Shown in pieces: positions 1,168 through 38,994 of a DNA stretch of 64,000 nucleotides. How positions within the stretch are numbered: position 1 is the first letter of the stretch; the number at the start of each line of letters is the position of its first letter. A model generated the notes under the pieces. The model was not told where the DNA came from, ran no database searches, and saw nothing but the letters and a program-made list of their open reading frames with translations. The stretch spans positions 97,588,001-97,652,000 of the forward strand of contig OZ360221.1 in assembly GCA_977017645.1 (NCBI GenBank), written 5' to 3'. Origin of the DNA: Torpedo marmorata (Eukaryota). The position numbers were made by a program, and so were the translations under genes.

Positions 1168-2663
1168 TTTTTGGAGTTTTTTTTATTTTTCAATATTTTT
1201 ATTGGTTTCATCAAGTAATGTTACATGGGTACATAATAATAAAATAAAGTATTAACAAATCACATATAATAATAAAAAGAAGTAAAGAAAAAAAAACCTA
1301 AAAAAAACCACTACTGTATACTAATTATCAACCCCCTCCCTACTGGCTAAACATAAACAGTCCACGACCTGATAATAAAAAGGAAGGTAATCAATGGGGT
1401 CAAAAACCAAAAGTTAATTAATCTTACAAATTTTTCAAGATTCCATTTATTATCATAGTAATAAGACAGTGTCATATTCCATGAAATTTCTTTTTCCCTG
1501 CTGCAAGGCAGACAGATTCGCCACCGGCAGAAATTGCCTAAGCGCCTCTAACATTCCTTACAGTCAGAGAAAGAGAAGCAAAAGAGAGTCCCCCCAGAGT
1601 CACCGAATGTCCGTAGATTCGCCTCCAGCGCTTCTGCAGCCTCCGCAGCCACACAGAGACCAGTCTAAACCATGGCAACCCGAGCTCCAGATCCGAACCT
1701 CCGACATGGTCAGGGCGCCCTCAGCATCTCCTCGCATCCCGGTTCCGATACCCAGTACTCCTCCAGCCAGTTTGAACCAGCCTCCAGCAGTCTGCAACCC
1801 GGCGTGAGTTCCCCGACAGCAGTCTCCAGCAGCCCACAGCCTCCGCGGGTTCCTTGCCTCGAGTCGCCAGCAGCCCGCCGCATGCACTGGTCCTTCAGCC
1901 TCAGAGCCCCTCACTGGTCCGCCGCTGTGGTCACCGTCCCGTGGGTCGTCTCCTCCGCTTCTCCTTCTCAGATGGGGGTGATCTTCCCGCCCTCTGGTGC
2001 CCTGCTCCAGTCCTCTGCTTCCCTGGAATCTGCAGCCCCTCGTGGCTGCTGCCGATTATTAGGTGCTACCATCTTGGGCGCAGACCCCGTGGTCATGGGA
2101 TCGTAAATAAAACCACTGACGGCTCCTTTAACTGGCCGTTCAAAGCCCGTGCGGAACCGACGACAGTCGACTAGGTGGCTGGACCCCGCGGGAGCGCTGT
2201 ATCTCCGCTCCCACGCTCCCCGCGGGTCTACAGCGGTAGCGCTGCCGTTACAGCGGCTCCGGCAGCGCCGCCATCTAAAGTTACTCAGCTCAAATTTTGA
2301 AAATAATTAAGAGAAGAACCCCAAAAAGAAACAAAGTTAAGATTCATTTCAGTAGTGATAAATCTAATTTTTTCCAAAGTCAAACATGCCATCATGTCAG
2401 ACAACCATTGAGTATGGGTGGGAGGGTCAGCATCTTTCCATCTCATTAATATGGCCCTTCTAGCGATAAGGGAAGCGAGGGCAACTACATGGGATTGTGA
2501 AGCAGTCAATATTAGACCCATTGGCCCACTTATTCCAAAAAGAGCAAGGAAAGGATTTGGAGTCAATGTAATGTTAAGAACTAAAGGCAAGGTACGAAAT
2601 ACACCATCCCAAAAGTTGGAAAGAGAAGGACATAACCAGAACATATGATACAGTGTACCTTCT
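1168..2663 (-). mobile_element. 5'-truncated L1-clade LINE 3' end, interrupted by the structured element at 1434-2276
   Basis: 16-bp TSD GACTAGGTAGAATTTA (1152-1167 / 2664-2679), T-rich tail, ORF2 C-terminal HMFWLCP...RRAILMRWK...LEKI. Confidence 0.85.
1434..2276 (-). mobile_element. Non-coding GC-rich structured retroelement with Rex/Babar-type 3' tail, copy 1
   Basis: Colinear and highly similar to 29126-29985. Begins AGATGGCGGCGCTGCC and ends ...TGATAATAAATGGAATCTTGAA. Confidence 0.85.
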
Positions 2664-5756: not shown

Positions 5757-7350
5757 TTCAGATTTCAAATTTATTGTCAGAGTACATACATGACATCACA
5801 TACAATCCTGAGATTCTTTTTCCTGCGGGCCAGGCAGAATGATCACTTATTGGTAGTGCAAAAAAAACTGCACACAATGTACACATGGAAACAAATAAAC
5901 AAATGTAAAACTGACTGTGCAATACAGAGGAAAAAACAAACAAACAATAAAGTGCAAAAGTAAGAGTCCTTAAATGAGTCCCTGATTGAGTTTGTTGTTG
6001 AGGAGCCTGATGGTGGAGGGTTAGCAGCTATTCCTGAACCTGGTGATGCGAGTCTTGCGGCACCTATACCTCTTTCCTGATGGTAGCAGTGAGAACAGAG
6101 TGTGTGCTGGGTGGTGTGGATCCTTGATGATTGCTGCTGCTCCCCATAGATGTTCTCGATGGTGGGAAGGGGTTTGCCTGTGATGTCCTGGGCTGTGTCC
6201 ACTATCTTTTGCAGAGCTTTACGTTCGGAGGTATTGGTGTCCCCATACCAGACCGTGATGCAGCTGATTAGCACACTTTCCACCACACATCTGTAGAAAT
6301 TTGCCAAGGTTTCCGATGTCATACCAAACCTCTGCAAACTCCTGAGGAAGTAGAGGCACTGACGTGCTTTCTTCACGATGCCATTAATGTGTTGGCTCCA
6401 GGATAGATCCTCCGAGATAGTGACTCCCAAGAACTTAAATTTTCTCACCCTCTCCACCTCTGATCCCACAATGATCACTTGATTGTACACATCTAATTTC
6501 CTTCCTGAAGTCAACAATCAGCTCCTTGGTTTTGGTGACATTGAGTGCGAGGTTATTGTTGGTGCACCATTCAGCCAAGTTTTCAATCTCCCTCCTGTAT
6601 GCTGACTCATCGCCTCTTTTTATACAACCCACTACTGTGGTATCGTCGGCAAACTTGTAGATGGTGTTGTTGTCATACCGAGCCACACGGTTGTAGGTGT
6701 AAAGCAGTGGTTTTCAAACTGCCCCACTAAACTCACATTCCCTATGCCATAAGTGCTCTGTGATTGGTAAGGGATTGCTTAAGGTGGTATGTGAGTGGGA
6801 AGGGAAGTTTGAGAACCACTGCTCTAGACCCAATTGTTACTGAAATATTTTGCTTGAGAAATATTGTCATTGGCCCATTTCCTTTGGAGTTATGAAACCG
6901 TGCACATAACGAGTCAATTAGGTACGATTAAAAGTGGTTTTCAAACCTTTTTCTTTCCACTCACATACCACCTTAAGCAGTCCCTTACTAATCACAGAGC
7001 ACTTATGGCATAGGGATTGCTTAAGGTGGAATGTGAGTTTAGGGGGGCAGTTTGAAAACCACTGGTGTAAAGCAAGTAGAGAGGGGGCTGTGGTGCTCCG
7101 GTACTGATGGAGATTGAGGAGATGTTCTTACCAATCCTCACTGATTGTGAGGAAATCCATGATCCAATTACACAGTGGGGTGTTGAGTCCCAGGTCTTGG
7201 AGTTTGCTGATCAGTTTTGAGGGGATGATGGTGTTAAATGTCGAACTGTAGATAAAGAGCATCGTGATGAATGCATCTTTGCTGTTCAGGTGTTCCAGGG
7301 CTTTGTGCAGAGCCAGTGAGATGGCATCCACTGTAGATCTGTTGCTACAA
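5757..7350 (-). mobile_element. Rex1/Babar LINE fragment (RT C-terminal half and 3' UTR), interrupted by a hAT MITE
   Basis: [47 protein letters not shown]; tail TGACAATAAATTTGAAATCTGAA. Confidence 0.88.
6705..7064. mobile_element. Composite hAT (Charlie-like) MITE
   Basis: TIRs CAGTGGTTTTCAAACTGCCCC / GGGGCAGTTTGAAAACCACTG; 8-bp TSD GTGTAAAG (6697-6704 / 7065-7072); long inverted arms. Confidence 0.9.
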
Positions 7351-28945: not shown

Positions 28946-30643
28946 ACATTGGAAAGAAATATGTAAACAATGTATAACGAAGATTATTAATGTTAGATAT
29001 AGGTTAGTGCAATATAATTTTTTGCATCAGTTATATTTAACTCCAAAGAAACTAAAAAAATTTAATCCGACATTATCAGGTTTATGTTTTAGATGTAATA
29101 AAGAGGAAGGTTCTTTTGTACATTCAAGATTCAAGATTCAATTTATTGTCATAGCAATAAGACAGTGTCATATACCACAAAATTTCTATTTGTCTGCTGC
29201 AAGGCAGACAGATTCGCTACCGGCAGAAATTGCCTAAGCACCTCTAACATTCCTTACAGTCAGAGAAAGAGAAGCAAAAGAGAGTCCCCCAGAGTCACCG
29301 AGTGTCCATAGATTTGCCTCCAGCGCTTCCGCAGCCACACAGAGTCCAGTCCAAACGATCGGCATCCCGAGCTCCCGATCCGAACCTCCAACATGGTCAG
29401 GTCGCCCTCGGCACCCCCTCGCATCCCGGTTCCGATACCTAGTATTCCTCCAGCCAGTTCGAGCCTATCTCCAGCAGTCCGCAGCCCGTCGTGAGTCCCC
29501 CGACAGCAGTCTCCAGCAGCCCACAGCCTCCGCGGGTTCCTCGCCTCGAGTCGCCAGCAGCCCGCCGCATGCACTGGTCCTTCAGCCTCAGAGCCCCTCA
29601 CTGGTCCGCCGCTGTGCTCACCGTCCTGTGGGTCGTCTCCTCCGCTTCTCCTTCTCAGACGGGGTGATCTTCCCGTCCACTGGTGCCCTGCTCCAGTCCC
29701 CCGCTTCCCCGGAGTCTGCAGCCCCTCATAGCTGCTGCCGACTAATAGGCGCTGCCATCTTGGGCGCAGACCCCACGGTCGCGGGATCTCAATATAAAAC
29801 CACCGTCGGCTCCTTTAACGGGCCGTTCAAAGCCCGTGCGGAACCGACGGCAGTCGACTGTGCGGCTGGACCCCGCGGGAGCGCTCTATCTCCGCTCCCA
29901 CGCTCCTCGCGGGTCCGCACCAGCGGCAGCGCTGCCGTTACAGCGGCTCCGGCAGCGCCGCCATCTTCAACACCCTCTCCCATGGACATTCTACTTGGCT
30001 TTGTCCAAATATATATGATTTTTGGTTGAAAGTTAAAAAGTTTTTAGACAAAGTATTGAGAATTACACTCCCAATGGATCTTAGGATATTTTTGTTTGGA
30101 GATATTAAAAGAATTAGTAGTAAAATGAGATTAAATATGTACCAAATAGAATTTTTGCGAATTGCTTTAGGCATTTCAAAAAAATGCATTGCTATTACAT
30201 GGAAATCTGATGTAAATTTAGGGTTAGAAAGATGGCATGCAGAACTTCATTCAGCTATACCCCTTGAAAAAATTACCTATAATTTACGTAATAAATATCA
30301 TTTCTTTATGAAGGTATGGAGCCCATATATAAAAACTGTGGGTTTAAGGATTTGAAGATCTCTGGATATCAGATCTGACTGGCGAACCTATCTTCCACAA
30401 TAAAATTAGTTTATAGTTGTTCTTTTTTTATGACATTCTCCTTACTCTATCTTTTTCTTTTTTTTTTATTTTTATTTTTATTTTAGTAGATTAATAGGGG
30501 TGGGAGGGTTAGGGAGGGGAGGGAGGGAGGGGGGGTGAAAATGTCTCACATGTATTTTGATAATTTTGTATTTTATTTTATGTATTTTGTTATTTAAAAA
30601 TTTTAAATAAAATATTTAAAAAAAATTATAAAAAATTTAAAAA
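28946..30643 (+). mobile_element. L1-clade 3' end (same family as 21559-25494) containing structured element copy 2
   Basis: HWKEICK...VRYRLVQYNF...CFRC...FVHS|TWLCP...IPLEKITYNLRNK; A-rich tail. Confidence 0.88.
29126..29985 (-). mobile_element. Non-coding GC-rich structured retroelement with Rex/Babar-type tail, copy 2
   Basis: Interrupts the L1 frame at FVHS|TW; candidate TSD ACATTC (29120-29125 / 29986-29991); tail TGACAATAAATTGAATCTTGAATCTT. Confidence 0.88.
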
Positions 30644-37284: not shown

Positions 37285-38994
37285 CCGTATATGCCATTGT
37301 ATAGGATGACTTGTGTATAGGACGACCCGGAATTTACACCTAAAATGTTGGTTTTGAGCAATACCCTTTGAATAAGACGACCCCCCCCAAAAATCTGGCA
37401 CATACCGCTGACCAGTGGATGCTGTTAAAAGCAAATCACAATATTTTAATAACAAATGATCATTTAAAGGTTTTAATTTTATCAGAATCAGAATCAGAAT
37501 TTATTGTCATGAACAAGTCATGAAATTCGGTGTTTTGCGGCAGCATCATAGTGCAATTAACATTCATATTAACCATCTAACGACATTACTATACAAAATT
37601 ATAAACAATAGTGCACAAAAAGTAAGGTAGTGTCTTTGGTTCATTGATTATTCAGGAATCTGATGGCAGCGGGGAAGAAGCTGTCCTTGTGCCGTTGAGT
37701 GCTCGTCTTTAGGCTCCTGTACCTTTTCCCCGATGGAAGCAGAGTGAAGAGGGCATTGCCTGGGTGGTGGGGGTCCTTGAGGATAGAGGCTGCTTTTTAA
37801 GACACCGCCTCATGTAGATGTCCTCGATGGAGTGAAGTTTGGTGCCTGTGATGTCACAGGCCGAGTTAACAACCTTCTGGAGTTTACTCTTGTCCTGGGA
37901 GTTGGCGCCGCCATACCAGACAGTGATGCAACCAGCCAGAATGCTCTCCACGGTACACCTGTAGAAGTTTACGAGAGTCTTTGGTGACATACCGAATCTC
38001 CGCAAACACCTCACAAAGTATAGCCGCTGACGAGCCTTCTTTGTGATTGCATCCACATGGATGCTCCAGGACAGATCCTCGGAGGTGTTGACACCCAGGA
38101 ATTTGAAGTTCTTGACCATCTCCACTACTGAGCCCTCGATGAGGACTGGATCGTGTTCCCCTGACTTCCTCCGGAAGTCCACAATCATCTCCTTGGTTTT
38201 GCTGACGTTGAGTTCAAGGTTGTTGTCATTACACCATTCAACGAGCTGATCTATCTCCCTCCTGTACGCTTCCTCATTGCCGTTTGTGATTCTGCCGAAA
38301 ACTGTGGTGTCATCGGCAAACTTGTATATGGCATTGGAATTGTGCCTGGCCACACAGTCATGAGTGTATAACGAGTAGAGCAGTGGACTAAGCACGCATC
38401 CTTGGGGTGCGCCTGTGTTGATAATCAGTGAGGAGGAGACGTTGTTTCCAATTCGTACTGACTGTGGTCTTCCAATGAGAAAGTCAAGGATCCAGTTGTA
38501 GAGGGGGGTACAGAGGCCTAGAGTTTGTAGTTTCTTGACCAGCACTGAGGGAATAATGGTATTGAAGGCCGAGCTGTAGTCGATGAAGAACAACCGTATG
38601 TATGAATTGCTGTTTTCGAGGTGATCCAGAGCTGAGTGGAGAGCCAGCGATATTGCATCTGCTGTGGAGCGATTGTGGCGATAGGCGAATTGCAGTGGAT
38701 TTTATTTGGATATTTTAAAATAAACCACTGTCGGCTCCTGCAACAGGCCCGTTTAAAGCCTGTATAGAGCCGACAGCAGTCGGACCGGGTGGATGGACCC
38801 CGCGGAGGAGCGCTGACACTTCGCAAATATCTCACGGGGCACGCGAAAGATTGCATCGGAGTCAGCGGGAAGATGGCGGTAGTGTTGCGACTTCATGTCA
38901 AGGTAAGAATTTTAGACTCTTTGAATAGGACGACCCTGATTTAAAGGTGAACATTTTAAGTTTCGAGGATCGTCCTATACAATGGCATATACGG
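37285..38994. mobile_element. Non-autonomous pogo-type element containing a Rex/Babar insertion
   Basis: TIRs CCGTATATGCCATTGTATAGGAYGA / TCGTCCTATACAATGGCATATACGG; TA TSD. Confidence 0.9.
37483..38698 (-). mobile_element. Young 5'-truncated Rex1/Babar LINE
   Basis: [38 protein letters not shown]; (TTCTGA)n tail; candidate TSD ATTTTAT (37476-37482 / 38699-38705). Confidence 0.92.

Follow-up and report, generated by a model that had tools for sequence, protein, structure and literature searches.

The DNA analysed here, a stretch of 64,000 nt from Torpedo marmorata (contig OZ360221.1, positions 97,588,001–97,652,000; hereafter the window), contains members of a genuine, dispersed retroposon family of ~850 nt, which is non-coding, very abundant and long-lived. 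From its sequence features we regard this family as probably a non-autonomous retroposon transcribed by Pol II from a YY1-type promoter and moved by the reverse transcriptase (RT) of a Rex1 element. The initial annotation of the window had reported two copies; both are present on the minus strand, with 90% identity to each other (copies A and B in Table 1), but the end proposed for copy B, 29985, lies 15 nt too far, in the flank. Copy A starts with TAGATGG and its tail is decayed. The window shares sequence with a local segmental duplication: copy B is found again, together with its flanking DNA and the RexA piece, at 97–100% identity, 44–47 kb before the window copies.

Table 1. Retroposon copies, parts of copy B and related LINE pieces, in window coordinates.
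Feature	Position	Strand	Remarks
Copy B of the retroposon	29123..29970	-	full length, youngest class, 97% to class majority
Copy A of the retroposon	1434..2276	-	full length, next-older class, 94% to class majority
Third, old head fragment	38712..38815	-	84% to oldest class; abuts 5'-truncated RexB piece
Head motif (TTG)AAGATGGCG	29959..29970	-	YY1-core site; start identical to autonomous Rex LINEs
8-codon mini-ORF starting at the head ATG	29938..29964	-	retained by each of the six classes, ending in TAA or TAG
Terminal 13-bp hairpin H1	29925..29962	-	arms invariant in the six class majorities
Stems H2/H3	29868..29916	-	inner stem rebuilt on the way from old to young classes
Long stem H4, 15 + 6 bp	29799..29854	-	two master-level compensatory pairs
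Stem H5	29768..29789	-	weaker in older classes
Second YY1-core site	29752..29761	-	core invariant in all six classes
GC-rich body resembling a CpG island, with short repeats inside	29250..29745	-	unstructured, z about 0
Decayed Rex-head-like piece, opening the 3' module	29211..29245	-	clear in old classes
Rex-type tail: hairpin, A-run, terminal stem-loop, TGACAATAAA	29142..29210	-	
(TTGAATC)n terminal repeat	29123..29141	-	
5'-truncated RexB LINE	37480..38698	-	young family; putative source of the enzyme for young copies
5'-truncated RexA LINE	5760..6670	-	older family, tail homologous to that of the retroposon

Searches of the 6.2-Gb genome returned 7,332 candidates, 40 of which were scored and are all full length with 95–100% identity; the flanks of the scored copies are unrelated, with the exception of one duplicated locus. 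Among the loci sampled by their heads, 29 of 30 continue into the retroposon tail. The exact 28-nt tail has 19,635 matches in the genome (control: 0), and the first 30 of these loci all correspond to the retroposon, 20 being full length, including one with a rearrangement, and 10 carrying a 5' truncation. An evenly spaced sample of 600 kb yielded 31 matches covering 1.9% of the bases, 9 of them with a head, while 5 of the 31 show only the tail type of a 5S-headed SINE; extrapolation from 9 heads per 600 kb gives ~90,000 head-bearing copies (roughly 40,000–180,000). The 145 non-redundant heads fall into six age classes, each 2–13% from its own majority sequence, with members of ~780–870 nt. The elements are dispersed, have a fixed 3' end, a variable 5' truncation and a simple-repeat tail, and carry neither terminal inverted nor long terminal repeats. 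The head pattern was also matched by the coding region of an LTR retrotransposon (7–8 of 30 loci), which was removed as unrelated; on its antisense strand, the gag-pol region of this LTR retrotransposon repeats AAGATGGCG in tandem. Relatives were found beyond the source genome, partial in 20 sequence runs from 11 organisms and over the whole length in four runs from four organisms. In two runs, which break at window position 29252, relatives have the same body and a different sequence past the Rex-head-like piece, a pattern which suggests tail exchange.

Nothing in the family looks protein-coding or derived from a small RNA, as had been proposed at the outset. The 184-aa stop-free frame of copy B is not retained across the age classes and no long ORF is common to all six, while Rfam, ARAGORN and Pfam (the latter run on 4 frames) returned no match on the retroposon, the Rfam and ARAGORN results agreeing with the claimed lack of a tRNA, 5S or 7SL head. 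A classical SINE (SINE1/2/3/U) was rejected, as no tRNA, 5S, 7SL or snRNA head was found. No A/B box pattern was found on the RNA strand of the retroposon, where a T4 run is present. The suggestion of an IRES-like 5' domain finds no object, as there is no long frame to be translated, only the ORF of 8 codons.

The genome contains at least five Rex-type families, distinguished by their tails, which we provisionally assign to the Rex1/Babar clade from domain layout rather than from a tree. One Rex element is intact and encodes a single ORF of 1029 aa with the endonuclease, RVT_1 and ALKBH8_N domains, a layout that agrees with the portions of PMC6274825 and PMC13343379 consulted; the same portion of the latter reports the highest Rex1 load in rays. 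Of these families, RexB and RexC are young; the longest RexC copies reach only into the endonuclease, and RexE was linked to an RT in the 600-kb sample. At two loci, one of them in the window (38712–38815 + 37480–38698), an old retroposon head or 5' part lies directly before a 5'-truncated Rex RT piece of the same orientation, a junction which may be a nested insertion or a template-switch chimera.

Sequence alignment indicates that the 3' end of the retroposon is homologous to the Rex1-type LINEs of the same genome. In tests run with the shared GACAATAAA excluded, the final 75 nt scored z 6.0 against RexA, 6.4–6.9 against RexE and 7–18 against the 5S-headed SINE; the corresponding values are 1.5 for the young RexB, which shares the last motif only, and 0.6 for the young RexC. 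The tail thus fits the older RexA and RexE, and neither of the two young families compared provides a matching tail for the youngest retroposon class. The layout of two tail hairpins is the same as in Rex LINEs, and the hairpin, the A-run and the terminal stem-loop are retained in five of the six class majorities, although the tail is the most diverged part of the element (31%). The initial description of the tail as similar to the local Rex tails therefore holds for TGACAATAAA and the two hairpins but not for the TTGAATC repeat, which was found on no Rex LINE (0/30 tail loci, 0/26 Rex C-termini in 600 kb); a partner LINE with a TTGAATC tail was found neither by tail pattern, nor by domain search, nor by random sampling.

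Upstream of the tail, the Rex-head-like piece of the 3' module scores z 4.4–5.4 in the old classes and 0.3–2.9 in the young ones. The same 3' module of ~120 nt is carried by the 5S-headed SINE of this genome (~240 nt; its head was identified as Rfam RF00001 in 2 of 3 loci), for which the closest match is the oldest retroposon class (z 18). A single RexA-like copy of ~135 nt, in which a head is joined almost directly to a tail, was also observed.

At the opposite terminus, the head AARATGGCG followed by the terminal hairpin constitutes the opening of autonomous Rex LINEs. RexB starts with TAARATGGCGCC in 24 of 30 loci, with the ATG of this motif opening the RexB ORF, while RexA-like families start at AAAATGGCGCC, followed by a small hairpin. 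At least three Rex families have no 5' UTR: the ATG of the ORF is located at about nt 4 within the YY1-core motif, and the small hairpin ends with GGCGAC. The YY1 core is given as GCCAT in the consulted part of PMC11602158. The reported repetition of the YY1-like start ~210 nt downstream was reproduced, with AAGATGGCG at 29967 and another AAGATGG lying 206 nt inward, and both cores are invariant across the six class majorities. The first 52 nt are the best-conserved stretch of the retroposon lineage (4% divergence between the oldest and the youngest majority, 13–21% elsewhere; Fisher P 0.0095). As judged from these motifs, a Pol II promoter in the head is plausible. The homology to Rex heads is limited to the first 9–11 nt and to the position of the hairpin; past nt 9, 15 of the 16 comparisons of the retroposon head with Rex heads gave z values between −1.3 and 2.2, and one gave 3.7. 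The proposed identity of the 5' domain with the 5' UTR of an autonomous Rex element has to be abandoned for RexA, RexB and RexF, the three families whose 5' ends were compared, which show no match and each have an ORF from nt 4.

An element that is Rex-like at both ends could be a plain internal-deletion (bipartite) derivative of an unsampled or extinct Rex1 family, with head and body representing the first 700 nt of that LINE. Bipartite LINEs are a known class (PMC5786205, in the part consulted), the Rex 5' regions of this genome bear hairpins, and the comparison stopped short of the 5' ends of RexC, RexD and RexE. However, none of the 145 heads continues into a shared LINE ORF (28 atypical copies were inspected individually), the RexB protein has no match to the body, and a second Rex-head-like piece is found 110 nt from the 3' end, within a module common to the 5S SINE. 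As this piece and the shared module indicate modular assembly, we regard simple internal deletion as an unlikely origin. The composition of the body (GC 67%, CpG o/e 0.93) and the end of the Rex-head homology after ~10 nt would also fit the capture of a host CpG-island promoter or 5' UTR, with a YY1-type housekeeping start, by a Rex tail module; the likeness to Rex starts would then be due to YY1/Kozak convergence, and the recurrence of the head motif at an apparent host first exon at 38870 agrees with this. Such a capture nevertheless seems improbable to us, given that the motif occupies the extreme 5' terminus and is immediately followed by a hairpin, as in three Rex families, and that no single-copy source locus was found among the 40 scored matches per search. 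As to the site at 38870–38907 (plus strand), AAGATGGCGG starts a frame of 10 codons that runs up to a GTAAG donor and faces the old fragment head to head; this frame may be a host first exon, and no downstream exon was found with the search keys used.

The initial annotation had further described back-to-back stems on the minus strand, and every stem named there is present in the MFE fold. The 249-nt head folds with z −7.2 as minus-strand RNA, compared with −4.0 for the plus strand, and the 5' 200 nt of the six majorities with −5.5 to −7.3 (opposite strand: −3.4 to −4.8), and the structured parts of the retroposon are nt 1–250 and the tail only. Hairpins at the 5' end are not unique to the retroposon, since the RexB 5' region has one of equal strength (z −4 to −5). 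Comparison of the oldest with the youngest majority revealed retention of 53 of 56 pairs (null 47.0 ± 2.0, P 0.002), or of 40 of 43 pairs when H1 is left out (null 34.5 ± 1.9, P 0.0035), while in the middle classes the retention is not significant (P 0.10–0.30). H4 contains two compensatory pairs (together P 0.10), one being a transversion pair outside CpG and the other having passed via an A-C intermediate and gained a CpG. RNAalifold gave a covariation term of only −1.3 kcal/mol and did not recover H1 and H5; both this analysis and separate pair counts, each on 28 decayed copies, are confounded by CpG decay and relatedness.

Selection on RNA structure had been argued from mismatches that resolve as G-U on the minus strand only. 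With helices chosen on the young RNA strand, this is true of the young classes (G-U:A-C ratios of 5:0 and 5:1) and not of the middle ones (3:4 and 3:3), and private changes in the copies amount to 332 G-U versus 275 A-C, so the asymmetry was rejected as general evidence. Selection on RNA structure has modest support, which comes from the retention of stems between masters and not from the G-U argument. The 3' arm of H1 lies within a perfect 14-nt palindrome (29924–29937), and the 5' arm repeats this palindrome almost exactly in direct orientation. A repeated DNA palindrome of this kind yields the H1 hairpin by itself, which counts against a purely RNA reading, as do the middle-class ratios, the small covariation term and the comparable hairpin of RexB.

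A self-cleaving ribozyme in the 5' domain, releasing the element from host transcripts that read through it in the manner of RTE, R2 and Ingi elements, would account for the sharp 5' end, the high full-length fraction and the strong folding, and ribozymes are common in the clades that yield bipartite LINEs (PMC5786205, in the part consulted). Here, the stems are plain serial hairpins, and Rfam was blank at E up to 5 for copy B and up to 1 for 7 loci, which speaks against a ribozyme head. A descriptor of the HDV type, used without positive-control validation, gave 0 matches on the RNA strand of the six majorities, and no hammerhead core pair was found. With no signature from either Rfam or this unvalidated descriptor, the ribozyme that had been suggested for the 5' domain appears very improbable.

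Both window copies are inserted in L1 pieces, as first noticed, which belong to ORF2. The association does not extend to the genome: L1 is present on both flanks at 8 of 85 sites, compared with 36 of 360 control points. The location of both window copies in L1 is therefore attributed to chance. For L1 on either flank the counts were 22/85 and 57/360 (P 0.04), with flank offsets that differed and an L1 library taken from the window only. Target-site duplications showed no excess over shuffled pairs at 66 sites. None of the 17 regions upstream of L1 ORF1 matches the retroposon, and 9 of them have their own, different start, and an L1 5' UTR was rejected as the origin of the head. With neither 5' UTR homology, nor an excess of target-site duplications, nor L1 enrichment, an L1-derived or L1-targeting element was dismissed. 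The L1 elements of this genome begin with GACTTCCGG, and their 5' UTR is only ~150 nt.

The initial view that this is a non-autonomous retro-RNA, one that has a Rex-type tail but lacks a Pol III head, is in agreement with the tail loci, the Rex tail homology and the absent box patterns. For the Pol II-transcribed, Rex1-mobilized retroposon that we favor, we infer that binding of YY1 at nt 1–10 and 207–216 would set the start of transcription in the CpG-island-like body; for L1, the site where transcription starts is determined by YY1 at the 5' terminus (PMC11602158, in the part consulted). The 5' stems may have been retained for two reasons, as promoter sites in the DNA and as structure in the RNA, the latter of which would stabilize the transcript and shield it from ribosomes. 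The two tail hairpins ahead of AAUAAA would constitute the recognition signal of the RT. The 3' ~120 nt could be an old miniature Rex, its head fused to its tail, that was acquired by different heads; by analogy with the model in the consulted part of PMC5786205, a miniature bipartite Rex module would have been reused beneath several heads. Mobility is likely to proceed by ordinary TPRT in trans, with no new mechanism.

The full characterization of the family as the first described ORF-less, Pol II-headed Rex1 parasite is put forward tentatively and with reservation. It would mimic the LINE 5' terminus (a YY1 site doubling as the start codon, and a hairpin), end translation after 8 codons, possess a selected RNA fold and carry a miniature Rex module also present under 5S- and tRNA-headed SINEs. 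No description of the family was found in the literature; the Repbase and Dfam catalogues lie beyond that search and may well list it. If true, the bipartite-LINE model would extend to Rex1, with ~1.5–2% of a 6-Gb vertebrate genome involved, and Rex1 would join the short list of LINE clades with parasites that lack a small-RNA head. Six dated masters make the sequences for transcription and RT recognition stand out, and the Rex1 ORF that starts from nt 4 in a YY1 core offers a testable lead on transcription and translation in a clade that is horizontally mobile and has received little study. Host gene regulation could also be affected by the presence of CpG-island-like copies with YY1 sites in the tens of thousands.

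Among known systems, mouse L1 monomers have a spacing of ~200 nt, similar to that of the second YY1 site of the retroposon. The mammalian L1 promoter, as presented in the consulted part of PMC11602158, also has a YY1 core at its 5' end. In contrast to mammalian L1, the retroposon is not L1-derived, the L1 5' ends of its own genome are unrelated to it, and its YY1 site is a predicted one. The bipartite ORF-less LINEs derived from RTE, Ingi, Vingi and R2, as described in the part of PMC5786205 consulted, share with it the lack of an ORF and of a small-RNA head, the LINE-like 5' terminus, the LINE-derived 3' end, the proposed transcription by Pol II and the reuse of the head-plus-tail module under other heads. 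The sources named there are these four only, whereas that of the retroposon would be Rex1; its 5' LINE homology comprises only ~10 nt and the hairpin position, with 600 nt of no traced origin. The 5S-headed SINE of the same genome has the 3' ~120-nt module in common with the retroposon and differs from it by its 5S rRNA head and its length of ~240 nt. RSg-1 belongs to the Rex1 clade. The SINEs paired with Rex1 or RSg-1 in the consulted part of PMC3747384 (SINE2-5_NV with Rex1-24_NV, HpaI, SlmI and OS-SINE1) likewise have a tail borrowed from a Rex-type LINE, but they possess tRNA or 5S heads (Pol III), which the longer retroposon lacks. As far as that part of PMC3747384 goes, SINEs that combine a Rex tail with a tRNA or 5S head are thus known, and what is unusual here is the LINE-style head.
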